A DNA stretch of 61,529 nucleotides, taken from positions 1 to 61,529 of the IMG/VR virus record IMGVR_UViG_3300030098_003632. One strand, 5' to 3'. This DNA is from a virus (lineage: Duplodnaviria; Caudoviricetes). Position numbers and translations under genes: made by a program. Of the stretch, positions 6,901 through 60,663 are shown in pieces (the first letter of the stretch is position 1; the number at the start of each line of letters is the position of its first letter). Below the pieces are notes generated by a model that worked only from the letters and a program-made list of their open reading frames with translations, did not search any database and was not told where the DNA came from.

Positions 6901-8950
6901 TGGATATCCAGCAACTGGCATGGACGAGGAAGGAACTGTTGACCAGCAAGCAGAGAAAGCAAAAGAGCTGGAAAAAGCTGGTGGCAAACGCGGCATAATA
7001 AGAACTGCCGCTGGCATTTATAAGCAGGCAGTTCCCGGAGTTGGTCTTGGTGATGCGGGCGCTCTTTATACTGGCGGTTATATCGAACGATGGAATAAGC
7101 TATTTCCTGATTGGGCTGAGGGCAAGAGAGATATTAATTTAGCTGACATTCAGCCAGATGATGGTAGTAGACCTGAATTCTCAGATGTCGTTGGCGTTCT
7201 TCGTATGGGTAATCATATCGACGATGAGCAGGCTGGATGGCTAGTTAAAATGGAAGGCCTTATTAAGAGAGATCTAGAACTAGGAAAATTCCCTGCTGCT
7301 AAACAGCATCCATATTGGGGTCATATTCGTGCGAAGTTACACGACTGGTCAGCACCAGAAGTTGAAGATGGCCCACGAAAATTCTATCTTTGGGAAGATC
7401 TTGATCTTAACGATGCTAATGTTCGGGAAGGTGCAATAGCACAGGCTCGAACCTTAGATGTTACCGGAAGAACTTTAGGAAGAAAGTACGATCCAGCTTC
7501 CTATCTTGAAGGAAAGCATTTATGGATGGTTCCGGGCTGGACAGATTTCACTAAGCACGCTGTAAGCGGTGAGAGATTTTACGATTCACTCCAATCCTCC
7601 CTGCTGTATGCAACAAAAGGAGGAGCGATTAGGAAGGGAACACAGTTATTTAGAAAGTTAAGAGGAGTTGCAAAGGCAGCTAAAGGGCTTAAGGGCTTTG
7701 GTGGAAAAGTGGTTGGTGGCACCGGATCAGCTCTCGGTACGATTATGCAAGGTGCTCACCAGTTATCGTACTGGATGGAGGATGCTGCACTAGCATTCGA
7801 TGGAGCCGCAGGATCTCAAACATTCAGAGAGGCTGCTGGAGTTCGTCCTCTTAAGATTGAGAATAAAGCAGTTGAATTCAGGCAAAGGCCAGAAGCCTAT
7901 ATACAGGCAAAGCAGTTTATTGAAAACAACACAGACACAAACGGTAATTTTTCAAGCGAAGAACGTGCAACTCAGTTCCAAAACCTTCTTTATGATGGGG
8001 TTCCATACTCTGATGTCATGGTCTGGGATCTCCACCACACACACAGAGACGGAGAGAATGAGGGAACTCCTCTGCCTCAGCAAGACAAGTTTATCCAGAA
8101 TAGGTTCACGGGAACAAGAATACCTTTGTCTCGAATAGAGCAAATGTATATCCATAACTATGAAGATAAGTGGCTCAATTTCTCAGCTCAATTAACTGGC
8201 CTTCGTTCGATTAAAGCTCTCCAGAAAGTAGATAGAAGAGGAGAAGAAACCGGAGAACAGATATTAACAAATGCAGAACTATCTGAAGCTGAAGCTGCAC
8301 TAAGATCCCTGCCTTCATTTACCCAAGATGAGTTAGAAGGCTGGAGTATAGGCACACCTAGAAGAACTGCTTGGACAAGTCCTCCTGTTAGCCGCCCCGT
8401 CACGCCACCAGCCGGCAGCTGGGGTTCAGCAACTGAGTTCGTTCAGAACTGGCAGGAAGAAATGGTTGGCGGTGGTATTAGAGATGCCTTTGGGAACCTG
8501 CTTGGCGACTGGGACTTCATGGGAGACTGGGGAACTGGCGCCAAAGAAGGGATTGATCGAGGCCAGCTTGGTGATGGGTTAGGCGGGGAATTAACTTCAA
8601 GATCAATTACATACTATCCACGACATAAGAACCAAAGATCCAGAGCTTCCTTGGCTCCAGCCGCAAATGTTGGAGAGCAGCTTGGGGGAGCAGTATCTAC
8701 CGTAGTCAATCCTATAGCTAGGGAATTAGGTTTCTCTGGTTTTGGGTACCACTCAGCAGAAGATATGTCTCATGTGGATATTAAACAAAACATAGCGGAG
8801 CTACCTGAAAGTCCTTCGTTTCTCTATCCTGACTATTCTAGGGAAGAAGCCGAGCAAAGATCTTGGATGTACAGGAATTCAGGTGGTTTAATACAATCAA
8901 ACTATATGCTTCCAAGTCAGTTAGCACCTCCTCCAGAATGGGGACAATAA
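902..8950 (+). CDS. Giant internal virion/ejection protein, polyvalent-like, with degenerate SLOG(cpYpsA)-, NADAR- and ASCH-like segments
   Basis: 2682-aa ORF downstream of the tail genes, where podoviruses keep ejection proteins; motif remnants at about 3775-5110. Confidence 0.6.
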   Translation: MSDDLTARRLQAEAKLDSARMKALYVGQIMIYEEMLRMNTAFALSESTAEGLKPNSPENAKRLLNLISPEFPPERNVGGAKVRIGKTDDLPIYDTRNVDAKVDGRLTRLRSKAGVPGDQSAYYLATEDSLKRYVESLEETLSQVDVSGAQQTTRKGRRVTNRYATPANLPAEVIYQAILDPRVGLDMVREGKNLAAQATRVRKQGNLAQANELESSSQSLIDLGTQILDLRGYASLAEGAPAQIGTEEFEGLGVGTERDIELGLFVEKDIEKDIDGNYYKAGETSNPQGAGRARRVIKPNNYEFQGFFNGINSLTDYETFNFDTAESQGALEGVDPLAAGDAQFALNTAVNNYFGTDIATAVEMANQMRYWELKEEGRISKDMTFQQWINLPNDVPFDIQPFSTSMQGVKQMLLNDESFVQEYDTFENFLEQQGVTADFEAQKDITPETIERIAIERIRQSLSRGNIQRMIQNASVSMKNPTGEYATLKAVKRAGPVDPMGNQTEVEIGTFRDVINAARRKYFVDEGSQLDVTDSEVTDAANRLKELGVFDVGLGESTVTRRQVSPLSKDGTELLKTIYRQKRINKIETRDDVSKLLTAVEAELSGPQRKALKAELKNFSQEVINALRVIVSAYRTDKSSKGLKASSLSGKEKTALSRIAGQYKHENQVSIRSTTASEQVTKNLKRIEKGVAKEESKARYKPTRPQLPPTTTAEAQTLFDSLRRLQSQEQEIINRLNALEDTPETKKERKALVDQKRLLSKQIKSRAGEIKKTATGIAQRTGAGVLPTPKAATGVEPTRDPTKLRTPGQSVARQRDQTGERAEVIDGRLAIVQDVEAAQARGQEPIIAEGHDLQMLEVTAAEKARKTQEWRKEIGKRTTQEQSIRNILDTTDLDSWDVALEEREAQEALKEVERGQVGSRTPSWDPEIAPNEPLRIVDGKVVPFDRIVEIRGSRTSPYEGLSVIISSEAGFGINQAKMAGFTEPGVDTGGFSGGDQLAGFYGASQITTETRNEFLEANPSRRNASDRDIAQWSNAGIAEATLSLGGGNPTAIANASNHVPNNSPEQAAQYIIDHNIKVLNIDEARDISEGISNKGEQAELFLSEMFGILEQRGALNPLTRQGGDAWTDATKQRTIGRPVHRLGTVEVNIDGVEQNEFKALSPNAKSSIEVAVVFRPAGKELKQKSVRFTSMAKALTWLTEQEATTNADGFEIDNEQAFDRLVDGSIAGTTNPVPENFSQDVLNNLIRIQVSNDTDYQGALNAAGDRLIVFTHDKREPSFGEVGFASPNKFATALDQAVEEGRTYGQELEILEAPSSAGTVFETQLEVPEIPIPAVQGPEQRKNLDSIRRGNIAARFSIDRKTVPNLVPGMVFRFEGTGRDSILVVENVSAETGSVVIRPATSEEKVNIQRARRTLKPISEQNLHSGPEQRALKRAAELEADPNVEVISQTKVSQEQKTLWQLVKENAKKGNVGEAFRRIKSALSSTKYTPEQQAAFRKYNIDQLTIPELQTALAAYRDNVEMTPENREVVDSIINQPTITQRASTNAKALLASLDDFTEGSTKEKIIDALETFRKASAEGSQKFLGLFGRAQNIDDEVSSLSESQWNVVAKYAQNADLNAKQRQGLRQVADWLGGRTSKPKPQVLRSVLDIPYNDIPGNRKTAFLNDMENAVHVTPQKVIAIPIRPGIGSTTYKVKGVGQPPRTVDIPKGRSAQAQTYLQSLFPDDDIYFTQPVGSEREANDQMQTITQMQAQAVAPAGTDPVSPGSAEPVAPQPTSPIAKSQTRSVAPAPTQTVGQPAATPQATVIKSAQGEIPVGGTPTENVIRNLMGGQEIEPGSPIQTIRDQLNTVNRDGEYSPEQVEEAFQAARYAQNTGQEHDAVVDAFWQTIDESAPDVELVETETGASVPRNTGRGPFGQGRDYVKPLRRPEDMTGQTEPDPQDTTQTTTDTTAAKTYPIPGSGSATGAEMFVDDEFQPNTNVYEDDKVFFPTGGIPQASAGGYPATGMDEEGTVDQQAEKAKELEKAGGKRGIIRTAAGIYKQAVPGVGLGDAGALYTGGYIERWNKLFPDWAEGKRDINLADIQPDDGSRPEFSDVVGVLRMGNHIDDEQAGWLVKMEGLIKRDLELGKFPAAKQHPYWGHIRAKLHDWSAPEVEDGPRKFYLWEDLDLNDANVREGAIAQARTLDVTGRTLGRKYDPASYLEGKHLWMVPGWTDFTKHAVSGERFYDSLQSSLLYATKGGAIRKGTQLFRKLRGVAKAAKGLKGFGGKVVGGTGSALGTIMQGAHQLSYWMEDAALAFDGAAGSQTFREAAGVRPLKIENKAVEFRQRPEAYIQAKQFIENNTDTNGNFSSEERATQFQNLLYDGVPYSDVMVWDLHHTHRDGENEGTPLPQQDKFIQNRFTGTRIPLSRIEQMYIHNYEDKWLNFSAQLTGLRSIKALQKVDRRGEETGEQILTNAELSEAEAALRSLPSFTQDELEGWSIGTPRRTAWTSPPVSRPVTPPAGSWGSATEFVQNWQEEMVGGGIRDAFGNLLGDWDFMGDWGTGAKEGIDRGQLGDGLGGELTSRSITYYPRHKNQRSRASLAPAANVGEQLGGAVSTVVNPIARELGFSGFGYHSAEDMSHVDIKQNIAELPESPSFLYPDYSREEAEQRSWMYRNSGGLIQSNYMLPSQLAPPPEWGQ

Positions 8951-8953
8951 AAA

Positions 8954-10198
8954 ATGCCAATAGAATTTCCACAAATCCCAATGATGGGTACTCATGGCCA
9001 AATGTCACCTACTCCCGGTGAGCAGCTAGTTCAGCAGATGGAAGAGCCGGAAGAAGATAAACCGACACCTCCTCCTGAATATAAACCTGTTACCGGAGCA
9101 GGGACTATAGGGCAGGGAGTTCCTATACCGGCTAGGGGTGCTGCACGTCCAGAGACATCGGACGGCTCTCTTAAAATAAATGTCCACCCTAGGCATGTAC
9201 CTAAGCAAGTTCTGCCAGGCACAACAAATAGGGCGCCAAAGACGCAGGCTGAAGTGGCTATGGCATTGTCAATGTCCGCCAACGACGGCTCAGGAATTCC
9301 TCAAGATTTAATTTATTACGCATTCCAAAACAAAGGACTAAATCCTCAAGCTGCAGCAAACATGGTTAAGAGGATCTCTAAAAACTTCACCCCGGATCAA
9401 TGGGGGAACCTTGCCGCGCAATGGGGATACTCGGCTCAACAGCTGGGCGGCGAATCCAGAATGGATTTAGATAAGGTTAATTCCTGGGCAGATAAAATAT
9501 TAAAAAGTAAAAAAGTAATTAAACAGGGCCCATGGAAAGGCTGGACACAAGCAGATGTGTACCAGATGAATCAAACTAGAAAGCCTCCCCAAGACTGGGC
9601 TCCTGCTGCAAGAGAACAGGTGCAATCTAATTGGAGAACACAGGCATTCGTTCCTTTGCAGAATGCAATCCAAAGTGGCGACAACCCTAGAGTTCAGGCT
9701 GAGCTTAATAGGTTAAGAATTATGGGCTTTGGAAATCCTACCCAGATTCTTAACAACGAAATCTTAATTAAGAATCTAACTTCTAAAGCCGATACCAGTA
9801 AAGAAGATTTTACTATGGCTCAGAATAAGATTAAATTATTTGCCGAGAACTACGCAACGCAAAACCCAGCGGCTAAAATACTTAGTCAGTTACAGTTTGA
9901 TCCGAACTCAAAAACCGGGAATAACTATTATATTTGGGATGGGCCAAGAGATCAGCAAGGAAATGTCATCCCAGAAACAGCTAAACAAATCTACATCCCC
10001 GAACAGGAACGCTTACGATTACTTGCAGAAGGCGATAAAGCCCTTAAGCACTTCATGGAAAGCGATCCATATTTACAGAAGTTCTTTACAAGGTATCCAA
10101 ACTACAGGGAATACTTCGAGCGACCGCCCGCTTATCAAAGCAATGTATTAGATGATATAGGGCCGGGCGATGACATTGCTCCACCAGCAGGGCGGTAA
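8954..10198 (+). CDS. Hypothetical virion/ejection protein
   Basis: 414-aa ORF tightly packed between two large virion ORFs; Pro-rich N-terminus with IPMMGTHGQMSPT. Confidence 0.6.
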   Translation: MPIEFPQIPMMGTHGQMSPTPGEQLVQQMEEPEEDKPTPPPEYKPVTGAGTIGQGVPIPARGAARPETSDGSLKINVHPRHVPKQVLPGTTNRAPKTQAEVAMALSMSANDGSGIPQDLIYYAFQNKGLNPQAAANMVKRISKNFTPDQWGNLAAQWGYSAQQLGGESRMDLDKVNSWADKILKSKKVIKQGPWKGWTQADVYQMNQTRKPPQDWAPAAREQVQSNWRTQAFVPLQNAIQSGDNPRVQAELNRLRIMGFGNPTQILNNEILIKNLTSKADTSKEDFTMAQNKIKLFAENYATQNPAAKILSQLQFDPNSKTGNNYYIWDGPRDQQGNVIPETAKQIYIPEQERLRLLAEGDKALKHFMESDPYLQKFFTRYPNYREYFERPPAYQSNVLDDIGPGDDIAPPAGR

Positions 10199-10203
10199 TA
10201 CTT

Positions 10204-13200
10204 ATGTCGATCTATATGTCGGACTATTACTCCCAGCCACAAACTGGAGGGTATCCACCATACGATGTTAGTCAGCAAGAGAAAGAAGATTTTCTTGCTA
10301 GAGAGCCTGGTTTCTTTGAGCAATTAACAGGCGCATTAGATAAGCCGGGGAGATCCGCAAGGCAAATTGCAGCCGAAGTTCGCTCATGGTTTACAGGTGA
10401 AGAGCATGACTTCAAGCCTCGTGAATTAATGGCTTGGGTACCCTACTCAGACAAGATGGGGCTAACGGATGTCGAGCAAGCAGCCAGTGGTCGAGATGTT
10501 CTTGGATTTCATGATGAAGATAATTTTCTCCAAGGCGTAGCCGGGTTTGCTGCCGAAGTTGTTACCGACCCACTGAACCTCGTAACATTTGGCGGGGCTT
10601 CAGCTCTTTCTAAGGGCGGCAAGATCTTTAATAAGATGGGAATTCTGGATGAGGTAATAGAAGAATCCGCTAAAGCCGCAGGTAGGCGTGCGGAAACAGG
10701 GTTCCTTCCTAAGCTCACAAAGATGGACACCACTGTAAGAGATGGGCTGAGTGCTTACAAAGAAAAAGTTATTCGCACTAGCACTCCAGGGGAAGTGCCC
10801 GGAATCCTGAAGGGCATTGATGACGAGTTCCTTTCGACCGCCCAGCAAATGGGACTTGGTAGTACAAAGATAAAAAATATTCTTGACGAGAATATTGGCG
10901 GGATGTTTGGTAGAGCATCCGCTAATCCTATCCCTGGATTCGGAAGATCTATGTGGGGAGACACTGTTGGGATCATGGGGCAGGGAGAAACTGCCAAGAA
11001 AATTGCTGAGGTGACTGGCAAAGGAATGCACAGTTTCAAGCACGCCCCCGGAATAACACAGTTGAGGGCGGCGTTTGACCATACGCTAGCGAAAGCCGTA
11101 TCGCCTATGGGGCAAGCGATGGCACAGAATGCCACGCGAGCAATAAAAAAATCTATCGAGCAATCCAGGATGCAGGCTAGTGCAGCAATAGAGCTGAAGC
11201 ATACGCTCCCAGAATACTTTAAGGTCGGCCATGTCGGAGCTAATGGGCAGGCCTTAACACAGCACCAGGTGTCAAGAAATAATATTCTTTTAACCAGGTT
11301 CCTAGAAAACCCTACGATGCAGGTGCCTAAAGAACTCCAGCCTCTAGTGCAAGCTGGACGAGATCTTCAGGCTAACATGCGATCAATGATGGAAGTAGCT
11401 AAGAGTAAAGGTATGCACATTGAGTTGCTCGAAGACTTGGAGTTAACTCCTGATGGGTTTATGCCTAGGCAGCTAAGGAGATTCTTTGGCGACGGTAAAA
11501 ACATAGCAGATAAAGATCCAAGCAGAATATTACAAACAACCCACAGGACACAGTTCGAGCGTACTCCGTTAACTAAAGATATACCCGAGGGTATCTCCGG
11601 TATCCAACAGCTTTCAATGGATCACAACATAAGCGGTCTGCTGCATAGAGGCGGCAAGTGGAAGGTGGATAAGCGGCCCACCGATTTTGATACTGCAGTT
11701 CAAGGGTTTGAAGAGACTGAGTTCGGAGGACATCGCCCGTGGAGAACAAAAGAATTCCTTCGGCACTACATAAAGACGGCGGAAACAATACCCACCGGGA
11801 CGACAAGGAAAATAAATTTTAACATCCCTGGGGCATCAGGAGATGTGAGGGTTTCCCTAGATGTTGCGGGGATAGATCCAGTACAGAAGAAGTGGACTCG
11901 GATCAAGAACAATGATGGGACATTTACCAAGAGGGCTGCTACTGAACAGGAAAAGGATGCCCACCTTGACGAGGTAATTGATTTCCTTGGGCAGCTCGAC
12001 TCAAGACACGCAGAGCTTGGATTACCTGCCTATATATCAGACCCAATACAGAACTACATCTCTTATGCCGAGGTAATGCACAGAGCAATCAATGCTCACG
12101 ATCAAGTAGGCGAAGCGTTCGGTCGTGAAGTTATGAAGATGAACGATCCCAGGTATCTACCAGAAAAATATATTACGTTAGGTAAGGCCCTGGAGAATTT
12201 AGAGATCGTCGATAAAAAAAGAAGGACTGTCCGAGCAGTAATCGACGGGAAGGATGCAGTAAGAGAGGTTGAGTTCGGTGACCCTAGCCTGCGGATGGTT
12301 AGAAATATAATTAAAGACAGGCCAGAAATGGCGGATATAAGCGTTCTTAATGATGAGGATTTATTAAAGTTAATCCAGAACGATTACTCCCCTAATACTC
12401 TAGTAGTCCCCGCATCACTTGTTAAAGATGCAGGCCGAATGTACTCTGTCTATGTAACTCCGTCTTCGATGGAAGACATCAAGCCTTTCTTGGATCACTT
12501 CGATAGGATTAGTAATGCTTGGCGTGCTGGTGTAACAATCCTATTTCCAAAGTTCCATATAAGAAACTTTGCGGGTGGCCAGTTTAACAACTGGGTTATT
12601 GATGCGTGGTCTCCTAGTTCTTTGATAGACGCACAGAATACAATGCTCGGCAATGTAGTCAGAGGTGCAGGCCAAGTTAACTGGAGACTTGACGGGCTGC
12701 CACCAGTAATTAAAAAACAAATCCAGGAACAGATAGAAGCTAACAACGGAAAGATTAGCGATGAGCTTGGTACCCGCATAGGGTTGGCACATATATTCTC
12801 ACAAAGATTGTGGGTTCCTGATATGCCAGCACCAACAATGGAGCTGATCGAAAACGTAGGTAAGGGTGATGTTGTCGATGAAATGATTCGACTTTCAGAA
12901 ACACCCAAGTCTACACCCGAAGCAATATCGGGATACCTAGGTAACCTAATGGCTAAGGATGAAACTGGCCGATGGTCTTGGACAATAGCCGATGCGATTG
13001 GTAACCTAAATTTAATTTTTCCTGTTTCCCCGGGGGCGATAATGGGGAAAGGTGCCTACGGTGGTGAAAGAGGTGTATCAAAACTACAGGCAATGGGGCA
13101 TAAAGCAGCCGCACAGATAGAAGGATACAACCGTATCGCACCGTTCTGGAAATTATTAAAGGATGGCTGGACACCACAAGCAGCTGCACGACAAGTAAAG

Positions 13201-14022
13201 AAAGCTCAGGTAGATTATTCCCACCTGTCTGAGTTTGAACGAAAGGTTATGAGGAGGACGTTTAGTTTCTATACCTTCTCAAGGGGAATGATTCCATTTG
13301 TATTAGAGAAAATGGTACAGCGTCCTAGTGGCCGCATGATGAGAACTGCAAGGACGATAGGGTGGGCACAGCAAGAGGATGAGTTTGGAGATTGGCTGCC
13401 TGAATACTTAAAGTCTAAAGGCTCATTCAGGGTTCCATTCACAGATGATACTGATGCTGAAGGCAAAAGAAATACAACTTACATTCAGTCTCTAGGGCTC
13501 CCGTTTGAGGATACCTTTGCTATGACTGGCTTAGGCTCTCAAGAAGGAATGGTCACTGGCTTCTTTGATGAAGTGCTTGCTAAGTCCCATCCATTAGGGC
13601 AGCTAATGTACCAACAGGTGTCAGGGCAGGATCCATTCTATAAGAAAGACTACAAGACAATCGGCTATGGAACTAAGCAGATTGGTGACGCAACTGTACC
13701 AATACAGAACCACATTATGAACATGCCTGCCCTTGACCTGATCCCTGGTTTCGCCAGAGGTGCTAAGTATAAGCCCGGAGATACTTGGGCTGGCTGGAGA
13801 AGGGCAATGACAAATCAACTGCTTCCATTCTCGCCTCAACAAATAAAAGACATGGACAGACAGAAGCGATCTACTATGCGTGATGTATTACATAGCAAAC
13901 TACGCGGAGCTTCACCATACTACAAGCACACAAGATATGAGCCTAAACCTGGCGTTGAGTTTGAGCCTGGGTCAGATGAATGGCGCAGAGAAATGGTTCG
14001 CCAATGGTACTCTAAACAGTAA
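10204..14022 (+). CDS. Large internal virion protein with LPD38-like C-terminal region
   Basis: 1272 aa. Motifs PKFHIRNF, EGYNR, AARQVKKAQVDYS, FSFYTF, LPEYL and HPLGQLMYQQVSGQDPF resemble the C-termini of podoviral ejection/large polyvalent proteins. Confidence 0.6.
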   Translation: MSIYMSDYYSQPQTGGYPPYDVSQQEKEDFLAREPGFFEQLTGALDKPGRSARQIAAEVRSWFTGEEHDFKPRELMAWVPYSDKMGLTDVEQAASGRDVLGFHDEDNFLQGVAGFAAEVVTDPLNLVTFGGASALSKGGKIFNKMGILDEVIEESAKAAGRRAETGFLPKLTKMDTTVRDGLSAYKEKVIRTSTPGEVPGILKGIDDEFLSTAQQMGLGSTKIKNILDENIGGMFGRASANPIPGFGRSMWGDTVGIMGQGETAKKIAEVTGKGMHSFKHAPGITQLRAAFDHTLAKAVSPMGQAMAQNATRAIKKSIEQSRMQASAAIELKHTLPEYFKVGHVGANGQALTQHQVSRNNILLTRFLENPTMQVPKELQPLVQAGRDLQANMRSMMEVAKSKGMHIELLEDLELTPDGFMPRQLRRFFGDGKNIADKDPSRILQTTHRTQFERTPLTKDIPEGISGIQQLSMDHNISGLLHRGGKWKVDKRPTDFDTAVQGFEETEFGGHRPWRTKEFLRHYIKTAETIPTGTTRKINFNIPGASGDVRVSLDVAGIDPVQKKWTRIKNNDGTFTKRAATEQEKDAHLDEVIDFLGQLDSRHAELGLPAYISDPIQNYISYAEVMHRAINAHDQVGEAFGREVMKMNDPRYLPEKYITLGKALENLEIVDKKRRTVRAVIDGKDAVREVEFGDPSLRMVRNIIKDRPEMADISVLNDEDLLKLIQNDYSPNTLVVPASLVKDAGRMYSVYVTPSSMEDIKPFLDHFDRISNAWRAGVTILFPKFHIRNFAGGQFNNWVIDAWSPSSLIDAQNTMLGNVVRGAGQVNWRLDGLPPVIKKQIQEQIEANNGKISDELGTRIGLAHIFSQRLWVPDMPAPTMELIENVGKGDVVDEMIRLSETPKSTPEAISGYLGNLMAKDETGRWSWTIADAIGNLNLIFPVSPGAIMGKGAYGGERGVSKLQAMGHKAAAQIEGYNRIAPFWKLLKDGWTPQAAARQVKKAQVDYSHLSEFERKVMRRTFSFYTFSRGMIPFVLEKMVQRPSGRMMRTARTIGWAQQEDEFGDWLPEYLKSKGSFRVPFTDDTDAEGKRNTTYIQSLGLPFEDTFAMTGLGSQEGMVTGFFDEVLAKSHPLGQLMYQQVSGQDPFYKKDYKTIGYGTKQIGDATVPIQNHIMNMPALDLIPGFARGAKYKPGDTWAGWRRAMTNQLLPFSPQQIKDMDRQKRSTMRDVLHSKLRGASPYYKHTRYEPKPGVEFEPGSDEWRREMVRQWYSKQ

Positions 14023-16936: not shown

Positions 16937-18567
16937 CTTCGCTTCCTCTCTTTCCGTATGGCATTTAGTAACCAGCTTGCTGCTATATATGGCTTCCCTT
17001 TAAGGCAGGTGTCTAAATACCAAGTAGGCAGATCCTCTACTAGCTTACCTTTGAACTTCCCAAAGATCATCCTTGCTCCTCTCTTCTTCTTGTGAACTCC
17101 CCCTTGAGCAGCACCTCTGAATGGATCAATATTTAATTTCTTGTACCTGGCTTCCGCCTCGATTAAAATTCTGCGTTGCCTTTCAGCCTCCTCGCGTGCT
17201 TCTCTTACTGCGCGCTTAGCTTCCTCAACTGCTTCGTCTAGCTCGACAGCTTCCTGGCTTTCAAGAATTAATTCTTTTGCTTTCTCAATCTCTTCAATCC
17301 CTATTGTCCCACTCATTACATCAGGAGATGTAACTATTTTATGAGCTAAGGAAGAATCGACCAAGTCTATCATTCTAAAGTAAGGCTTGTCGCTGAAAGC
17401 TATCGAAGCCTGCCTAGATTCAGCAGTGCTATTATCGAAGTCAACCACGCCACGCAAAGGCCTAGTACCACGCCCAAAGATTTGAGTGTATAAGGCACGG
17501 CTTTTGGTGGGTCTAGCCATGACAATGTTTCGTAGGTCAGGAAAGTCCCACCCAGTAGTAAGAATACCCACATTGCAGACGTGAGTAAGACCGTCAGGAT
17601 CTTCTTGAAAAGATCGCATAACCTCTCGTCTACGCTGGGGTGTACACTTTGATGTATCACTGGCGATCCAGTCTGCTGGGATTCCGTATGAATCAACGAG
17701 TCGTTCTGCGACGAGCTTTGCTTCTTGAACAGAGGAGCAGTAGACCACGGTCTTTTCTCCTCGGGTTTCTCTGGCTGTGACATCTGCTATCTCCATGATT
17801 GTTTCTGAATCTTCGAGCAAAGAATTTAATTCTTTCTGGTTAAAGTCTTTGCCCATTACTGTATTAGTTGTGCTTACATCTTTTAGGTCTAGTGATTCAA
17901 GCTGTACGCAATGAGTCTTAGCGGGTACTAACCATCCTCCTTTAACAGCATCCGCTATTCCATATTGATAGACACACTTATCGTATATATTTAACATCGC
18001 TTTCTGGTCATGGCGTTTAGCCGTTGCTGTTACACCTAGCACCTTAGCCCCATCGTTACGATAGAAGTCCAACATCTCTTTCCACTTGGGCGTTATGGAT
18101 AAGTGAGCTTCGTCTACTACGACTAAGCCTACGTCCCTAATCCTTTCGTACCTTGGTGGAGTTCTAGATGTCAGACTATCTTTAGAAGCAACTACATACT
18201 TGCTCCTCCCCCAAGGGGTTTCGATACTCCAGTTCTTTGCTTGCTCTATTCCTGGCTGCTCTCCTGTTCTTAAAAATATTTTCTTTGCTGCCTGGCTAAT
18301 CAACTCGACATAGGGGGCGATGACTAAGCATCGCCCGTTCTCCCATGTCTTAAGTAGCTGAGTAAATATTTCTGTCTTCCCTAGCCCAGTGGCTAACTCC
18401 ACTAAGACAGATTCCTTGTCTACGAAAGCATCTTCAATAGCCTCCCTTGCTTCCGCTTGATAAGGTCGTTCCTTAAAATAATTTATGTGCCCCGAGATTC
18501 CTTGGCTGCGCGGCTGAGGAACCCTGTCCCATAGCAGTGGTTGCATCCGGTCTTGTTTCCTAGGCAT
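16933..18567 (-). CDS. Superfamily 2 DEAD/DEAH-box helicase with C-terminal FGK(F/Y)KG (DUF3820-like) motif
   Basis: RPYQ Q-motif, ATGLGKT, DEAH, TAT, LTTGWDFP, QIFGRGTR. Start uncertain (18567 or 18546). Confidence 0.92.
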   Translation of the reverse strand: MPRKQDRMQPLLWDRVPQPRSQGISGHINYFKERPYQAEAREAIEDAFVDKESVLVELATGLGKTEIFTQLLKTWENGRCLVIAPYVELISQAAKKIFLRTGEQPGIEQAKNWSIETPWGRSKYVVASKDSLTSRTPPRYERIRDVGLVVVDEAHLSITPKWKEMLDFYRNDGAKVLGVTATAKRHDQKAMLNIYDKCVYQYGIADAVKGGWLVPAKTHCVQLESLDLKDVSTTNTVMGKDFNQKELNSLLEDSETIMEIADVTARETRGEKTVVYCSSVQEAKLVAERLVDSYGIPADWIASDTSKCTPQRRREVMRSFQEDPDGLTHVCNVGILTTGWDFPDLRNIVMARPTKSRALYTQIFGRGTRPLRGVVDFDNSTAESRQASIAFSDKPYFRMIDLVDSSLAHKIVTSPDVMSGTIGIEEIEKAKELILESQEAVELDEAVEEAKRAVREAREEAERQRRILIEAEARYKKLNIDPFRGAAQGGVHKKKRGARMIFGKFKGKLVEDLPTWYLDTCLKGKPYIAASWLLNAIRKERKRR

Positions 18568-24780: not shown

Positions 24781-25173
24781 CTAGAAGGGTGCTTCATCCA
24801 GAAGTCCCTGTGGTTCTTCTACCACCGGGCCAGGTGCAGCTTTCTGCATTTCTGCTTGTGCACCTCGACCAAACCCTTGGATAAGATTGCCTATCACCTT
24901 AACTTTAGATCGCTTCTGTCCGTCAGTTTCCCAACGCTCCTGCTTAAGCTCTCCTTCTACAAGGCAAGGACTACCTTTCTGCAGGTAGTCCCGTGCAAAT
25001 TTAGCACTCTGTTCCCATAGTGTTACGTCAATAAAGCTAACTTCATTGTCTTTACCGAAGTTTCTATTGACTGCTAGTACAATATCAGCAACAGTTTTTC
25101 CGGTGGTAGTTTCTCTAACTTCAGGATCTCTACATAGATTTCCTACTAAAGTTACACGATTATATTTAGCCAT
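24781..25173 (-). CDS. ssb: Single-stranded DNA-binding protein
   Basis: NRVTLVGNLCRDPEVR; YLQKGSPCLVEGEL; acidic C-terminus ending EAPF. Confidence 0.95.
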   Translation of the reverse strand: MAKYNRVTLVGNLCRDPEVRETTTGKTVADIVLAVNRNFGKDNEVSFIDVTLWEQSAKFARDYLQKGSPCLVEGELKQERWETDGQKRSKVKVIGNLIQGFGRGAQAEMQKAAPGPVVEEPQGLLDEAPF

Positions 25174-25183
25174 GTTAGTCTCC

Positions 25184-26857
25184 TTATTTTATGACTATAG
25201 TGTGAATCCAATCTGGGACTGGATAGTAATCTCTAAGTTCTCTGGTTAGTACGGCTATTACAGGCATATCCATACTGTCTTCAGGCCAAGGTGTTTCCCC
25301 ATCCGTGAAGGCGAGTATTACATCGGGCTTGGATTGACGTTGTTCAAGTGATTCTGTAATCATTAAGCCAACGTCAGTTCCTCCTCCCCCTTTGACCTCT
25401 ATTTCATTAAAGCTCTTGGAAAGTTTTGTTGAGTGCTTAAACTCAGTATCTCCCATATATAAATCTAATTTTGTCCTTGAGTCGAAGTGATTAAATATAT
25501 TTTTAATCGCCCCTTTACATTTGGCAAAGTCTTCATCATCCATAGAGGCAGATGTATCTAGACATATTAATATGTCTGGCTTATAGCCTTCTCTTGATGG
25601 GAGCTTTATACCTGTAACGTCCGATCTTCTGTTGAATCTCCTGTATGTTCTTCTGTTTCCGTTAGAAGAACGTTCAGCAAATCTTTTGACAACTCTAAGA
25701 ATCTTTTGGTAAGGATCAGTCCTTACCGGCACGATTGTTTCTGCCCAACTAACCATATCTCCCCCGACATTGCTTCGGTTCTTATGGATTTGTTTGGCAA
25801 GATCTTCAATTACATAATCAATCTGATCTTGATTTAAGCCCAGGCCACCCTCGTCTGGGTCGGGTAGCACTGAGCTTAGATCTATTTGTATACTTCCTGC
25901 TCCGGGTTTTCCTGGATTGGGCCCATCCCACCGGAGTTCTCCATATTCATTGATGCTAATTGATTCGTCATCTGAAAGTGCATCTGTCGAAGGTGCTCGT
26001 CCATCGTCCTCATCGCTGCTTCTGTCCCGCTGTTGATCGACATTATCTGCATCGTTATTGTGTCCACTGCTCCCTTCAGTTGGTTCAGTTCCGCTTGAAG
26101 ATTCTGGACTATCTCCGTAGTGTTCATCAAGTTGGTCACTGTTGTCCTCAGTTCCCCCACTTTCTCCGCTAAATCCGATTCCAGATTCTCGAATCGCTCC
26201 CTCGTTGGCTTGTTGATTATTGCTCGTGGCATCGTCATTCTCCTTTAACCTTCTATAGTTTAGTTCTACTGGTAGATTCTTCTCGACTATGTGGATGAAC
26301 TCTTCGTCCCACCACTTCAAGTAGTCTGTAGTTATTACTACGCGACTCTTGTCGCTGTAGCTATATATCCTATCGGGACTTACTACAGGTAGTTCCCTTG
26401 CAAGTATGTCATTAACACATAAGTCTGCAGCTATATTCCATAGGTGCATTTGCTTTCGTGTTACTTCTTTACCTACTTCTTTCTCTAATCTTCTGTGATG
26501 GTTGTTGGTTAGGTGCAATAGCTCATGTAATATCACACCAGCTATCATCTCTTCCTTGTTGTCCTTTACAAACTTAGGATCGTAGGCCAACCTCCAATGC
26601 TTATCAACTCCCATTGTTCCTAAGCCATGTACTGGCACAGGTTTCATGGAAAAGATTGCATTCCTACTAAACTTCCAATGTCGTGCAGCTCTTAGCATTG
26701 CTTTACGCAAACTGTTGTCTTCACGGAATGTTATTCTACTGCCTGGCACTCTGCTTTTCAATGAGTTAGTCATGATAATATCCCTTAAAGTCCCTATTAT
26801 TTCCCTTTCGGGGTGCATAGACACACTCCATGCACCCCTCAGGGTACCGTTAGTCAT
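25184..26857 (-). CDS. HExxH metallopeptidase-like plus vWA protein (DUF2201 type), partner of MoxR
   Basis: ILHELLH, WNIAADLCVN; acidic linker; MIDAS motifs DTSASM, GGGTD, FTDG. Confidence 0.88.
   Translation of the reverse strand: MTNGTLRGAWSVSMHPEREIIGTLRDIIMTNSLKSRVPGSRITFREDNSLRKAMLRAARHWKFSRNAIFSMKPVPVHGLGTMGVDKHWRLAYDPKFVKDNKEEMIAGVILHELLHLTNNHHRRLEKEVGKEVTRKQMHLWNIAADLCVNDILARELPVVSPDRIYSYSDKSRVVITTDYLKWWDEEFIHIVEKNLPVELNYRRLKENDDATSNNQQANEGAIRESGIGFSGESGGTEDNSDQLDEHYGDSPESSSGTEPTEGSSGHNNDADNVDQQRDRSSDEDDGRAPSTDALSDDESISINEYGELRWDGPNPGKPGAGSIQIDLSSVLPDPDEGGLGLNQDQIDYVIEDLAKQIHKNRSNVGGDMVSWAETIVPVRTDPYQKILRVVKRFAERSSNGNRRTYRRFNRRSDVTGIKLPSREGYKPDILICLDTSASMDDEDFAKCKGAIKNIFNHFDSRTKLDLYMGDTEFKHSTKLSKSFNEIEVKGGGGTDVGLMITESLEQRQSKPDVILAFTDGETPWPEDSMDMPVIAVLTRELRDYYPVPDWIHTIVIK
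25882..26232 (-). CDS. Overprinted coiled-coil protein nested out of frame in the vWA gene
   Basis: AAGGAG 7 nt before ATG 26232; 116 codons with heptad pattern; coincides with the acidic linker of the host gene. Confidence 0.55.
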   Translation of the reverse strand: MPRAIINKPTRERFENLESDLAEKVGELRTTVTNLMNTTEIVQNLQAELNQLKGAVDTITMQIMSINSGTEAAMRTMDEHLRQMHFQMTNQLASMNMENSGGMGPIQENPEQEVYK

Positions 26858-27971
26858 TCAATCTAGATTCTTCCATCTCCCTAAGCTCTTGGTTAGCTTC
26901 AGGTACATACCCATCTGGCTTCATGTCCCATAGTTTAGCTTCAAGATTCCTTGCTAGGTCTGGGTATGTTCTGTAAACATTCCCCAAGAACTTTCTACCT
27001 GCCTCCCAACGTTCTTCCGTCAGGTTGTCACGCACTCTTCTGAGTACAGACTTGGCATAACTCATAGCTATTGGGAATTCCTCGGGTATTTCTACCTCTT
27101 GGGGATCCTTAAGGAGATCTTCTGGGTCAACAAAGTTCGTAACTTTAAGGAACTCATTGAACTCTGATCCAACATGTTCCCCTACGAATCCTTGTATTAT
27201 TCTAAGGGTAACTTCAGGTGAGGCTCCAACTGAGATTGCACCCCCAAGGGCATAAGATAAGTTAGTCCATGACCTTGGTGTAGGGAATGGATTACCTTTG
27301 GTATCCTCATCGTTCTCCATGCAGGCATACTCCTCCTTGGCGTATGTACTTTTGCCAAAGAGAAAGTCTACTATCTTCTTTGCGAAGAGTGGGGTAGACT
27401 CATGCCAGTCGTCCGGAACAACAGGTACTTCTGGTGCAGGGAAGTCAAACCCTCCTGATTCCATACCCTCTATCCATTTCTTGGTGTCCATCTTCCAGTC
27501 AACAATGCACATCCTATTAATCATAGGTTCTGCCAATGGATTTCCATTAGTGGCTTGATCCATCCTGTTACCTGCTGCAAACACCCAGCAATTTTCAGGT
27601 GGGTTATCCATCCATGTAAGTGCAGCTGCTTGGGTAGCCTCATTTACTGAGGTGAATTCATCAATTAACATGATTGAATTCTGCAGTCTGGCACGCACCA
27701 TTTCCTCCAGCTCAACCATCTTAATGACTTGGTGCACGTTACCTTTGATAACGATGTCCCTTTTGTCAGGATAACCTCCAACGTCTTCTGGTTGTCTGGC
27801 TGGTAAGGGTGTCCTAATCCAACGCCGTTCCCTAGCTTTCGCCAGGGTCTCTAAAGTTTTTGTTTTTCCTACTCCAGCTGGGCCGTATGCCATCGTTGGT
27901 ATGCCTACCTGGGGAGGAATTAAATATTCCCAGTTGATTTGGGATTCTCTTCTGGAATGATGCTTTGTCAT
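26850..27971 (-). CDS. MoxR-type AAA+ ATPase
   Basis: GPAGVGKT, IDEF, AAGN, NRM, PTPRSW; directly upstream of the vWA gene. Confidence 0.9.
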   Translation of the reverse strand: MTKHHSRRESQINWEYLIPPQVGIPTMAYGPAGVGKTKTLETLAKARERRWIRTPLPARQPEDVGGYPDKRDIVIKGNVHQVIKMVELEEMVRARLQNSIMLIDEFTSVNEATQAAALTWMDNPPENCWVFAAGNRMDQATNGNPLAEPMINRMCIVDWKMDTKKWIEGMESGGFDFPAPEVPVVPDDWHESTPLFAKKIVDFLFGKSTYAKEEYACMENDEDTKGNPFPTPRSWTNLSYALGGAISVGASPEVTLRIIQGFVGEHVGSEFNEFLKVTNFVDPEDLLKDPQEVEIPEEFPIAMSYAKSVLRRVRDNLTEERWEAGRKFLGNVYRTYPDLARNLEAKLWDMKPDGYVPEANQELREMEESRLND

Positions 27972-42518: not shown

Positions 42519-43052
42519 ATGGCACTCAAAAAAGTAAAGCCTTTCAGGGGCGGGAATAACTACAACTGGTCTGAATTCAAAGACGAAGTTGAGGGAGATC
42601 CTAGCAGAAAAGGGTTTGCTGATCTTTGGGGGTTCAAAGGAGACAAAGGGCCAGCCCAGTGGGGATGGGATTACTTCCACGGAAACTGGGGTCGGTGGAA
42701 GCGTAGCCCCAAGAGGTGGCAACGCAATGCTGGATTTAATAGGCAGCAGGATTTCTATAAAGCTGTATGGGACTTGTGGGACACCGATGAGTTTAGACAT
42801 CTGTGGCCAGGAGCAGGGGAAGAAGAAAGTTCTGAGGTGTTTGGGTCACAGGAGTCTCAGGTTGGTAATCTAGAAACATCCCCAACAAGTTTTAGCACAA
42901 ATAAAAATTTCACTGTGGGTCTTAAGACCCCATCTGATATGATAGACTCAGAAGACCAAGCTCACTTTGGGGACGCTGAAGGAGAAGGAAGTGATATACC
43001 TTCGTTCAATCTCCCTGGTCAGCAGACAACAATGCCAGATTTTTGGAGATAA
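42519..43052 (+). CDS. Trp-rich/acidic hypothetical protein
   Basis: AGGAG SD; 177 aa. Confidence 0.6.
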   Translation: MALKKVKPFRGGNNYNWSEFKDEVEGDPSRKGFADLWGFKGDKGPAQWGWDYFHGNWGRWKRSPKRWQRNAGFNRQQDFYKAVWDLWDTDEFRHLWPGAGEEESSEVFGSQESQVGNLETSPTSFSTNKNFTVGLKTPSDMIDSEDQAHFGDAEGEGSDIPSFNLPGQQTTMPDFWR

Positions 43053-44112: not shown

Positions 44113-45796
44113 TATTCTCAGTTCCATTACGGAACATCAGAAAAAAGAACTCCGCGAACTTTATGCTGAAAAGGTCAAGCGAGAGTCTGAGGCACTTCGT
44201 TTGTATGAACCACTTCCTTTTCAGGATAGGTATCATTCTTCTCACGCCAAAGAAATACTGCTTCAGGCAGGCAACCAAGTTGGCAAATCTTTAGCGGCCT
44301 TTGTTGAAGATGCTAGAGCAGCAACCGGACAAGATCCATACGAAAAGTACCCCAAAGAGAATGGCATTATGGTTTGCCTTGGTATGGACGAAGGACATAT
44401 TGGAAGAACTATCCACAAGTACCTTTTCCGCGAAGGTGCGTTTAAGATCATTCAAGATCACACCACAGGTAAGTGGAGAGCGTGGAAGCCTTGGATTACA
44501 GAGGACTGGGAGCGTAAGGCAGAAGCAAAGCCCGCACCTCCACTGATCCCCGAAAGATTTATAAAACAATTCGCATGGAAGAAACGGGCCCAACATGTCT
44601 TCGAGATTTGCGAACTTCACAATGGCTGGACTATCTATGCCATGGGTTCTAAGGGAGACCCTTCTCAGGGATTCCAGGCCGATTTAGTACATATAGATGA
44701 AGACCTTGAGCGTGCCGAATGGTATGACGAAATGATCGCTCGTCTGTCTATGCGTGATGGAAAGCTGAGATGGTCTGCGTTGCCCCACTCTAAGAATGAT
44801 GCTTTAGTTAATTTAGCCGAGCGAGCCGAAGATGAGATGGGGCAAGACAACCCATCTACTCAGGTTATACGAGCAACGATTTTCGACAACCCTTTTATGC
44901 CGGAACAAGTCAAACAGGAGAATATTAAAAGGTGGAAAGCTAAAGGGGAGGATGAATTTAGAAAAAGAGCTATGGGTGAGTTGGTTACCGATAGTGTTCT
45001 CATGTACCCTAATTTTTCTAAGGATGTTCACAATGCGATTAAATTTGAAGATCCCAGAACGCCTATCCAGAAGTACCTTAGTGAGAATAATGGAGTTCCG
45101 GGCTCTGACTGGACGAGGTACATGGTCGTTGACCCGGGCCACTCTGTTTGCGCTGTTACTTTCTATGCCGTGCCACCAAGCGTGCTTGGCGATCATGTTG
45201 TTGTATATGATGAGCTATATATCAAAAACTGTACAGCGGCGAAGTTTGGTGCTATGGTAAGCCAGAAAACAAGAGAAGATCAGTTTGAGGCCTTTATTAT
45301 CGATGCCCACGGTGGTCGAATTAGAGAAATTGGTACCGGTGTTCTTCCTCGTGTGCAGTATACAAAAGAACTCAAAAAGCATAATGTTAAAAGCAATATC
45401 ACTAACCATGGCTTTCTCAGTGGTTCTGATGATGTTCCTGGCCGAGAAATGAAGTTGCGTACATGGATTAATATACGCCCAAATGGTACAACTAAGCTCC
45501 TTGTCGTTGTTCCTAGATGCCCCAATCTCTGCAGGGAATTTAATAGGTTTAAGAAAAAGACGATAAATGGCTTTGTTACAGACGAAGGTAATCGCCGTGG
45601 AAACTGCCATGCTATAGAAACACTAGAATATGCAGCGGCTCATGGATTAAAATATGTTAAGCCCCGAACAAAGAAAAAAACATCAACCGCTATAAAACAA
45701 ATACTAAACGGACGAAAGAAGCGCAGCGCACAAAGAAGAGCAAGAAAGCGTGGTCTTAGTCCTGACTTTATTAACCTAGGCCCTCAAGGAGAGTAG
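44087..45796 (+). CDS. terL: Terminase large subunit
   Basis: PFQ, AGNQVGKS (Walker A), VHIDED (Walker B), DNPFM, MVVDPG (nuclease), HAIETLEY. Confidence 0.9.
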   Translation: MTNPQKANDILSSITEHQKKELRELYAEKVKRESEALRLYEPLPFQDRYHSSHAKEILLQAGNQVGKSLAAFVEDARAATGQDPYEKYPKENGIMVCLGMDEGHIGRTIHKYLFREGAFKIIQDHTTGKWRAWKPWITEDWERKAEAKPAPPLIPERFIKQFAWKKRAQHVFEICELHNGWTIYAMGSKGDPSQGFQADLVHIDEDLERAEWYDEMIARLSMRDGKLRWSALPHSKNDALVNLAERAEDEMGQDNPSTQVIRATIFDNPFMPEQVKQENIKRWKAKGEDEFRKRAMGELVTDSVLMYPNFSKDVHNAIKFEDPRTPIQKYLSENNGVPGSDWTRYMVVDPGHSVCAVTFYAVPPSVLGDHVVVYDELYIKNCTAAKFGAMVSQKTREDQFEAFIIDAHGGRIREIGTGVLPRVQYTKELKKHNVKSNITNHGFLSGSDDVPGREMKLRTWINIRPNGTTKLLVVVPRCPNLCREFNRFKKKTINGFVTDEGNRRGNCHAIETLEYAAAHGLKYVKPRTKKKTSTAIKQILNGRKKRSAQRRARKRGLSPDFINLGPQGE

Positions 45797-60200: not shown

Positions 60201-60663
60201 AAAATCCCCTGAACAAAGAGATTGGTCAGAGGTTGTGAACTACGAACACTATCTCGGAACTAACTACACACAAGATCCGCTACATAAGTACCTAGAAGAA
60301 AACCCACGAATTAATGTCAATGATATAAATGCCCAGCAGATGAGGCTGTCTTCAATCGGCCCAAGAATCAAAGAGCTAAGAGAGTATATACACGCAATTA
60401 ATCAAGCAATGCAATTTGGCGGTGATCCGAACTGGACTACTGCCCAGCAGGCTGAGTTTAATAGGAAACTTTGGCAAGAACTGCAGCCATTCAAGTATGA
60501 GTACAACAAGCTAATTAATGAGCAAGCCCTCTTATCTCCAGCAGGTCGTGGGCAGTTAGTAGAAGGTTGGTACGGGCCTGGGCTTTGGGATGAGTCTCTA
60601 ACACCAGTTCATACGGCAATACAAGATTACTACGCCGGAGACTCTGTTTGGCTTCCTAGGTAA
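57208..60663 (+). CDS. Large acidic virion protein with a dockerin/EF-hand-like motif
   Basis: 1151 aa; LDINGDGFITPADAL at about 57740. Confidence 0.6.
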   Translation: MASKTWGGLTDERLGKLFDRINQGAALQEGQDDQFSAQDISMGMVTQDFLNSLQRKKQTFGGDLDTRDKEDPQKMGFSVRSGQTGVGADSFKNTEKQTKGILEEAFQKARDMDTGLQLGQTLTADGSYTKFTDYVDAAAEAVETGVATPQGKLANIYKMLQDGGEGNAIPAAQAPALDINGDGFITPADALYLQNEGVGQEGQASWLSYLYGDNPLDQEYLIAREEGEQPAYDEFIRDQYPELAAKEVPEDLRKYFGGPTSDEQRELTFGAAAGGRFGTSFDSNRLMFTAMPSFPGMLDMNMGIVSQQIQQQAAAAIEAFKSPEMLSVFDDMQRFGLTPEHIQAITSLSPEDIGLTMTAQDSNTLMTYIKSIEDIYGEGYWGTLDASELLRDISPKFSASFRIPEVTLQFLELVEGGNPSNQADWRRRSFSTSVITLPLIDAQTQVTNNLTSPENTQQFVDWFKKVYGGGDIAARSGEIQQPSPEQFTTTTSFSPTGEGVTDPVTDPVEGGGVDTIQPWTGYNSGIFAGYNEHDQPINSLGIMLFDLSENNTWDGTPWDGEWTAGRSDADQWASPGPNDMTTQAIVEWVNPETGEMTSNSTGGWAPPPNSGWMKRHAYEMYTGTQLPSSIELHFPDGVPDREDGADVITDFLDQYFPDYDYSGSPFIDEDGLEYKQWPTQAHIYSGQPVFDPLNMHGYNAYTDPLMNHSLYMNTANPFDSTFNANYDMMQDDFMVDALNSFLDRRINTGNIFRTIPGWEQGDDWIRPRHMIGFEEQDWQNMLPGVVDYGLAHNQNIYNNMQTNFMGYQKDAYGRDIPIYKHKAWNPANMDVLGNLERSIRMGTGLDQMPIDKAAYEEEKTPRFMEGGSQGASAYPDSHAPDEENPRPNWISDDEWEYARYLIDTGQLQDEGMFLYEPEFSKWRQSTNPNRDQRIVQTQTPHVWHWRGGNEFQKVFLRLGNGFEKDEWDDFLKDRNIQSGVVTRQNNTTVLPDGKDLSGKSPEQRDWSEVVNYEHYLGTNYTQDPLHKYLEENPRINVNDINAQQMRLSSIGPRIKELREYIHAINQAMQFGGDPNWTTAQQAEFNRKLWQELQPFKYEYNKLINEQALLSPAGRGQLVEGWYGPGLWDESLTPVHTAIQDYYAGDSVWLPR

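Follow-up and report, generated by a model that had tools for sequence, protein, structure and literature searches.

Long nested genes are, to our knowledge, a well-documented feature of tiny viruses, but few have been established in tailed double-stranded DNA (dsDNA) phages, and standard gene callers leave them unreported. In phage lambda, the spanin genes Rz and Rz1 are embedded, with Rz1 specifying a secreted lipoprotein of the lysis cassette, and gene E of phiX174, which lies in D, is also an overprinted gene. AAA+ ATPases of the MoxR type, for their part, are known with a vWA partner that bears an acidic linker, as in the RavA-ViaA, BchI-BchD and CobS-CobT pairs. Here, we describe a locus in the IMG/VR virus record IMGVR_UViG_3300030098_003632, a tailed dsDNA phage (Duplodnaviria; Caudoviricetes) whose complete record of 61,529 bp we refer to as “the window”. 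Judging from comparative analysis of the sequence, the linker of a DUF2201 peptidase-vWA gene in this phage very probably carries a genuine nested gene that is under selection and was overprinted in the +1 frame of the larger gene (the “host gene”).

The locus shares features with each of these systems and departs from each. Like Rz1, a small gene is fully nested, on the same strand and in the +1 frame, within a larger phage gene, and has its own start signals. Unlike Rz1, it belongs to an early/replication module, its frame is the more constrained of the two, and its product lacks cysteine, a signal sequence and a transmembrane segment in 9/9 lineages compared. Indeed, the product (10-15 kDa, and also without tryptophan in all nine) shows neither the lipobox cysteine nor the transmembrane helix typical of embedded lysis genes, with a 19-residue Kyte-Doolittle maximum of 0.34-0.88 across the lineages. 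Overprinted genes of phiX174, such as B in A, are discussed in sections of PMC8227390. As in those cases, a new protein would have arisen de novo over an existing phage gene, and the same genealogy criteria agree. Unlike phiX174, a 5.4-kb single-stranded DNA phage under strong size pressure, the phage described here is a tailed dsDNA phage of 61.5 kb. Sections of the same source describe the hepadnavirus surface gene, which overlaps the spacer between functional domains of the polymerase and extends into the reverse transcriptase domain (PMC8227390). The likeness is that a second gene sits on an inter-domain spacer, so that one frame tolerates what the other dictates; the hepadnavirus case differs in belonging to an animal virus with another gene and frame history, whereas the overlap described here is confined to the linker and one short host motif. 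Finally, AAA+/vWA partner systems are treated in the abstracts of PMC3893208 and PMC10585395. The host gene resembles the vWA members of these pairs in having a vWA DxSxS motif and an acidic low-complexity linker and in lying directly downstream of an AAA+ ATPase gene, and differs from RavA-ViaA-type partners in having a zincin-like DUF2201_N domain instead of an AAA-like N-domain. Searches of literature listings found no second gene inside the linker in the AAA+/vWA literature and no gene nested in a DUF2201/vWA linker. Overprinted nested genes on the same strand are known as a kind, and this gene, its family and its location in the linker of a vWA partner were not found in the literature listings searched or in family libraries.

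The host gene (25184..26857, minus strand; 557 codons) encodes a DUF2201_N zincin-like peptidase, an acidic linker and a DUF2201/vWA domain; Pfam places the putative metallopeptidase domain at residues 50-243 (E 2e-17) and DUF2201/VWA at residues 428-556. The nested gene (25882..26232, minus strand) consists of 116 sense codons and a stop, with its ATG at 26232-26230, its last sense codon ending at 25885 and its stop codon at 25884-25882. It corresponds to host residues ~207-325, between the two domains, where the host frame encodes a dual-coding linker rich in D, E, S, G, N and T (25883..26239, minus strand) with 0 host-frame stops. The minus strand around the nested start reads ...GGTTAAAGGAGAATGACGATGCCACGAGCA..., from which a Shine-Dalgarno (SD) sequence, AAGGAG (26240..26245, minus strand), can be read directly, followed by a 7-nt spacer (26239-26233) and the ATG. 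An alternative in-frame ATG lies at 26238, two codons upstream of that at 26232, and would give an open reading frame (ORF) of 118 amino acids; two codons before this first ATG, a TAA (26247-26245) opens the nested frame in the window. Ten occurrences of AAGGAG-N5-9-ATG are present in the window, compared with 4.0 expected.

A preliminary description of this DNA had reported a same-strand alternative frame that opens with AAGGAG-7 nt-ATG (26232) and runs for 116 codons, and its coordinates, motif and length prove exact. It had also judged the SD to be as strong as those of neighbouring genes. This is borne out, as AAGGAG with a spacer of 7 nt matches the best neighbouring sites (AAGGAG plus 6 nt for the SSB gene and AGGAG plus 7 nt for the AAA ATPase gene). 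As to the further claim, that the limits of the nested frame coincide with those of the low-complexity linker, the nested ORF does lie in the D/E/S/G-rich linker between the domains, and the C-terminal tail of its product overlaps a motif that is conserved in the host protein. Codon usage in the nested frame is gene-like. Log-odds per codon come to 0.172 when the nested frame is read, compared with 0.327 for the host and -1.278 for the third; true in-frame windows used as controls score 0.275 +/- 0.107 and 119/119 +1-frame control windows score below the nested value. A 70-amino-acid antisense ORF lies opposite the nested gene (25960-26172, plus strand); the antisense frames are fairly open at this locus, as would be expected of a complement poor in A.

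Conservation was assessed with homologous loci. A large protein collection supplied 21 relatives of the host protein with a long linker (31-97% identity in alignment, with P0001 at 97%), and DNA of the phage clade comprised 13 loci: L002-L012 from IMG/VR, and L025 and L027 from metagenome contigs, the last two taken from the best 80 of 502 confirmed matches. Counting the window, there are nine lineages (L003 and L006 group near L002, and L005 and L007 near L004; L012 is identical to L009 over the region), between which host protein identity is 30-45%. Across the linker, all 11/11 IMG/VR loci have a +1 frame that stays open for 130-147 codons and a +2 frame that reaches at most 58 codons. An intact homologous +1 ORF with an ATG is present in 13/13 clade loci as well as in the window, with lengths of 93-136 codons from the ATG. 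The encoded peptides align almost without gaps over ~95 residues, share the motif G....L..QI...N.G...A...MD..L.QM, and have T10, L35, G54 and Q62 in common without exception. In 9/9 lineages, the ATG lies 5-14 codons before the conserved core and has a purine-rich SD-like site upstream, with a spacer of mostly 7 nt. These sites read AAGGAG in the window and L009, AGGAG in L010, GGGAGG in L025, AGGGAG in L027, and AAAGGA in L004, L008 and L011. The preliminary description had proposed looking in close homologues for stops in this frame or a missing SD; 13/13 loci keep the +1 ORF, its ATG and an SD-like site. A profile of the nested family, seeded with the window and L002-L012 and run against 4064 six-frame ORFs from 103 foreign loci, also recognized L025 (1.2e-37) and L027 (5.8e-10), with no match at E <= 0.01 in the other 90 of the 103 loci.

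Which of the two frames is under selection can be read from the pattern of substitutions. In an alignment guided by the nested peptide (a 79-codon core with one locus per lineage, i.e., 9 of 14 sequences, near-duplicates being omitted), amino-acid identity averages 0.38 when the core is translated as nested and 0.25 when it is translated as host, the third frame being similar to the host frame. Nested identity exceeds host identity in 34/36 lineage pairs; in the extreme pair, L009 and L010, the values are 81% and 30%. Nucleotide identity at nested codon positions 1, 2 and 3 is 0.53, 0.66 and 0.44, respectively, which is the usual coding pattern, and the most conserved of the three corresponds to the third position of host codons. 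BLASTP comparisons of the window with 8/8 other lineages gave E values from 3e-40 to 4e-8 for the nested frame and from 3e-20 to no match for the host frame; the third frame mostly gave none. A control alignment guided by the host protein included seven usable sequences, L004 having been dropped (its tblastn start lay before an in-frame stop). Here, host third positions are saturated outside the overlap, where each 30-column block shows an identity of 0.29-0.38 at them; this identity climbs to 0.49, 0.54 and 0.66 within residues 205-293, where it exceeds that at positions 1 and 2 over residues 234-293, and is back to 0.35 at residues 294-330.

The ratio of non-synonymous to synonymous substitution rates (dN/dS) was calculated for the core by the Nei-Gojobori method. 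Nested-frame values are 0-0.36, and all five divergent pairs computed exceed 1 when read in the host frame. The host-frame values are an expected artefact, because host synonymous sites are constrained. Two independent close pairs, L002-L003 and L004-L007, each with 96% nucleotide identity, were pooled for counts of individual substitutions. The host flanks have synonymous and non-synonymous changes at 64:37; the overlap has them at 1:22 when read as host and 17:6 when read as nested (Fisher tests, 1.3e-7 and 1.7e-6; binomial test against 0.25, 1.2e-6). The comparison of dN/dS in both frames that the preliminary description had called for thus shows a substitution pattern that tracks the nested frame rather than that of the host. 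The host frame is nonetheless kept open: when nested codons are resampled synonymously, 4.8-9.9 host-frame stops are expected and 0 are seen, with P(0) <= 0.0045 in 9/9 lineages, and the third frame has 11-16 stops. The avoidance of host-frame stops indicates that both frames are read. Both frames are therefore maintained, i.e., the region is dual-coding. Together with the conservation of the ORF in 13/13 loci, the frame-specific substitution pattern supports the existence of a true, fully nested gene, as the preliminary description had supposed.

The overlap is divided between the two frames. Over its first ~90 codons, purifying selection acts on the nested frame; the host-linker peptide is poorly conserved and does no more than stay open and hydrophilic in make-up. 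Over the last ~25 codons, a conserved host motif regains control and the nested protein is a disordered tail. The motif, G-E-L-x-W...PG.G, includes four host residues that are invariant (G306, G312, P318 and G321). The idea that the linker sequence is largely a by-product of the nested gene is thus supported, with the qualification that the host motif controls the last ~25 codons.

Several observations weigh against this reading of the locus. The openness of the +1 frame is, in itself, to be expected in such a linker, judging by its T-poor composition, the outcome of shuffling and resampling, and the existence of distant linkers that are just as open. The T content of the linker is 15%, compared with 23-24% in the flanks; a +1-frame stop requires a host NTA or NTG codon, and T occupies position 2 in only 11 codons of the linker. 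When the linker codons are shuffled, the longest +1 opening averages 83 codons and P(>=120) is 0.077; host-synonymous resampling with the codon usage of the window gives P(>=120 open codons) = 0.058. On the window alone, neither test is significant. Nine distant DUF2201 homologues with low-complexity linkers have +1 frames that are open for 116-228 codons without a conserved peptide. In two of the 36 lineage pairs, both involving L027, host identity equals or exceeds nested identity. The alignment of the core was guided by the nested peptide, a bias countered by the host-guided control, and dN/dS estimators are biased in overlapping genes. The SD-like site of the L002/L003/L006 lineage is weak, with an AG-rich run in L002. 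Contigs from four sequencing runs are identical over the stretch except for a C>T change at 25931; this variant, which comes from one contig at depth 3 and may be an error, alters the amino acid in the nested tail and leaves that of the host frame unchanged. At the protein level, no Pfam or PHROGs family reaches threshold or occurs in >2/11 nested members, and the predicted template modelling score (pTM) from AlphaFold2 is 0.42, a lone helix being uninformative on assembly. An open +1 frame by itself is thus weak evidence for a gene; the comparative data take the case far beyond chance.

The nine open distant linkers (L028, L032, L037, L038, L047, L054, L061, L079 and L100) are acidic or of low complexity. 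Openness in the +1 frame is a general property of such linkers, one that can produce false positives and may perhaps favour gene birth. Elsewhere in the window, five further ORFs of 94-142 amino acids are nested within longer ORFs on the same strand, at 7800-8138 (plus strand), 9840-10151 (plus strand), 17400-17783 (minus strand), 42589-42873 (plus strand) and 44832-45260 (plus strand).

Four other explanations of the locus can be set against a nested gene. It may be that there is no gene at all, and that both the open +1 frame and the helical-looking peptide are by-products of an acidic linker poor in T and in hydrophobic residues. The scarcity of codons with T at position 2, the two probabilities above (0.077 and 0.058) and the nine open distant linkers fit such a view, as does host-synonymous resampling of single lineages, in which P(0 nested stops) is 0.03-0.76. 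It is met, however, by a nested peptide that is better conserved than the host frame, by the conservation of host third positions, by the contrast between 17:6 and 1:22 in the substitution counts, and by the conserved ATG and SD-like site, the exact heptad periodicity and the gene-like codon usage. In addition, the +1 peptides of the distant linkers are R/P/S-rich or consist of K/G repeats, without homology to the nested family. We leave the absence of a gene only a very slim chance. The conserved host third positions could also mark an RNA or DNA element (a structure or binding sites) with no second protein, since RNA structure can in principle constrain synonymous sites. RNAalifold, applied to the 237-nt core of eight lineages, finds 0 consensus base pairs; moreover, the variation is in the 3-nt phase of the nested frame, and conservation extends to the ORF, its ATG and the heptads, making the probability of such an element practically negligible.

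The two remaining alternatives accept a second protein-coding frame and differ in how it is reached or how it arose. SD-like sites within a gene are able to promote +1 frameshifting, as they do in prfB, so the nested frame might be entered by programmed ribosomal frameshifting, giving a fusion of the peptidase domain to the coiled coil in place of a separate 13-kDa protein. Ahead of its ATG, the nested frame has a further 2-22 open codons, the number varying with the lineage, and one database protein (P0123, 311 amino acids) is indeed a host N-domain running into the nested frame. Yet the ATG stays at a fixed distance from the core, and an SD-like site ~7 nt upstream of it is kept, in 9/9 lineages; the TAA two codons before the first ATG of the window leaves 12 nt for any shift; and the junction in P0123 lies ~40 codons inside the nested ORF, as it would for an assembly indel, with a second protein, P0127, breaking in the opposite sense. 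Frameshifting is, on this evidence, highly improbable. Somewhat less so, and still improbable, is a reversed history, in which independent peptidase and vWA genes once flanked a stand-alone coiled-coil gene and the host linker arose later, through a read-through fusion. The dominance of the nested frame in the pattern of constraint and the near-freedom of the host linker sequence are compatible with this order of events, and the two most distant members called in databases, P0125 and P0132 (135 amino acids each), are on contigs (1783 and 2340 nt) too short to show their context, with their DNA not found in IMG/VR. Against it, single-chain DUF2201_N-linker-vWA proteins whose linkers are acidic and of low complexity, yet without the nested peptide, are widespread outside the clade, and no stand-alone homologue was found among 1.84 billion representative proteins, nor in a collection of 5.8 billion beyond six calls on short or truncated contigs. 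Codon usage points the same way: that of the host frame is nearer to the genome (0.327 vs 0.172), which is a criterion for the ancestral frame in sections of PMC8227390.

The preferred reading, a nested gene translated from its own start, leads to a predicted protein with a simple architecture. Residues 8-98 (25939..26211, minus strand) are modelled by AlphaFold2, from an alignment of 11 rows, as a single helix; the predicted local distance difference test score (pLDDT) has a mean of 82 and block values of 89-97 over residues 11-90. Family-averaged hydrophobicity over the same residues has a best period of 3.5, with a power of 76 compared with a shuffle mean of 11.9, and 0/2000 shuffles reach the observed value. 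Mean hydrophobicity is +1.52 at a/d positions and -1.19 at the others, and ~ten heptads run uninterrupted from F14 to M84 of the window protein. The clean heptad coiled coil claimed in the preliminary description is thus backed by both the periodicity and the structural model. The C-terminal tail (25885..25938, minus strand), rich in Q, N, G, M and P, is predicted to be disordered, with pLDDT < 50 at residues 99-109 and 114-116, and is the part that overlaps the host G-E-L-x-W...PG.G motif. A two-copy complex prediction with nested residues 1-100 gave a score of 0.03 (mark 0.42), which counts neither way. Among database comparisons, the best Pfam match of the nested protein is Filament, whose score of 20.5 bits falls short of the cutoff (40) and which we regard as coiled-coil noise, and all ESM Atlas matches (best score 0.89) are uninformative.

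These features suggest how the gene may work and how it may have come to be tolerated. Translation would begin independently at the internal AAGGAG-7 nt-ATG of the early mRNA shared with the host gene, and the product would be a 13-kDa cytoplasmic protein in which one amphipathic heptad helix of ~90 residues self-associates as a coiled-coil oligomer. The genetic code may explain why a linker can accommodate such a helix. Read one base earlier, the nested codons CTN, ATN, GTN, GAR, AAR, CAR and ACN become xCT, xAT, xGT, xGA, xAA, xCA and xAC, and these would specify, respectively, S/P/T/A, N/D/H/Y, G/S/R/C, G/R, K/E/Q, S/P/T/A and N/D/H/Y, i.e., the make-up of the linker. In terms of residues, nested L, I, M, V, E, K, Q, T and A would correspond to S, P, T, A, N, D, G, R, Q, K and E in the host reading. 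Overprinting is probably tolerated because the code turns a heptad helix in the +1 frame into linker-like residues in frame 0. As to its origin, we infer that the host frame is ancestral and that the nested gene was born de novo in an ancestor of this marine phage clade, since acidic linkers without the peptide are widespread, the nested family appears confined to the clade, and host codon usage is nearer to that of the genome. Restricted phylogenetic distribution and codon usage are among the genealogy criteria for overlaps given in sections of PMC8227390, and strong purifying selection combined with near-genomic codon usage would fit what parts of that source call an ‘old’ de novo gene.

The distribution of the nested family in databases, as far as profile and sequence matches show it, is confined to this marine phage clade. 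A search of 1.84 billion representative proteins with the nested profile gave 13 matches. Seven of these are short proteins (69-135 amino acids) that are copies or fragments of the nested ORF family, and five are long proteins (439-3090 amino acids) that, from the extents of the matches alone, match in short stretches only. In the remaining match, P0123, the host N-domain enters the nested frame ~40 codons after the nested start. P0127, one of the seven short proteins, follows the nested protein from its start but departs from that frame midway. Both breaks look like indels in metagenomic contigs. In the 5.8-billion protein collection, the nested family is called six times, on contigs of 531-2340 nt or on a contig that truncates the host gene (L011); therefore, gene callers find the ORF only where the host gene is cut. 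A distant member, P0132, is named ‘predicted nucleic acid-binding Zn-ribbon protein’ by one source; since its sequence has no Cys-rich motif, this name probably derives from coiled-coil similarity. Among 50,697 phage records, tblastn with the nested peptide gave no match at E <= 1, and the host protein gave nine distant matches and no close relative. IMG/VR yielded no match to the host protein, P0003, P0125 or P0132 when each served as a single query.

In metagenomic data, the stretch was found in marine runs of six coded studies. The host gene interval (25184-26857) is present at >= 0.91 of sampled words in 13 marine metagenome runs from four coded studies, with parts of it in two RNA libraries. 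Contigs of one RNA library span 25184-25284, 26028-26353 (including the nested start) and 26539-26725, and are uninformative on transcription, strand and frame.

The HExxH residues (H111, E112 and H115) and the vWA DxSxS motif (D434, T435, S436 and S438) are invariant in 22 host-protein sequences. The start of the host gene is probably M29, at 26773, rather than 26857: 19/21 homologues have their first residue in the M29 column (the other two being a later start and an N-terminal truncation), and AAGGGA precedes the host-frame ATG at 26773 by 7 nt, which together suggest this position. With a start at 26773, the host gene would no longer overlap the AAA+ gene by 8 nt and would instead be separated from it by ~77 nt. 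The AAA+ ATPase gene (26850..27971, minus strand; Pfam AAA and AAA_5, PHROG 1297) is a syntenic partner, found upstream of the host gene in 12/13 clade loci, with L025 ending at a contig edge. Downstream, the SSB gene (24781..25173, minus strand; Pfam SSB 3.6e-27) marks the replication/early module and is likewise present in 12/13 loci, with L011 ending at a contig edge. The full syntenic module reads orf310, AAA+ ATPase, host gene, SSB and a resolvase-like gene.

The phage group is without cultured relatives, and for the portal there was no tblastn match among the 50,697 phage records. Elsewhere in the window, very large ORFs without a Pfam match occur at 902-8950 (plus strand; 2682 amino acids), 10204-14022 (plus strand; 1272 amino acids) and 57208-60663 (plus strand; 1151 amino acids), of which the first two are also without a PHROGs match.

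The genomic setting allows some speculation on function. The nested protein might be an accessory partner or regulator of the co-inherited AAA+ ATPase/peptidase-vWA pair, or another early host-takeover factor, a suggestion that we offer as tentative. A fuller scenario, in which a de novo coiled-coil gene took over the evolution of the linker and its product works with the AAA+/peptidase-vWA machine or as a host-takeover or anti-defence factor, is doubtful in its entirety.

The significance of the locus lies mainly in what it reveals about overprinting. The evolutionary evidence is unusually clean, with nine lineages and a frame-specific switch in constraint that starts and ends within one gene. 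A disordered acidic linker tolerates almost any sequence, which shows how overprinting can succeed. The usual relationship is inverted, in that the ordered and constrained partner would be the newer one, providing an example for models of de novo gene birth. The nested ORFs define a new protein family and give a motive to scan the inter-domain linkers of phage proteins for hidden genes. If the nested protein and the AAA+/peptidase-vWA pair form a co-dependent unit, the locus would encode a three-component system in two cistrons. If the same holds elsewhere, the linkers of multi-domain phage proteins may be a general, unannotated nursery for nested genes.

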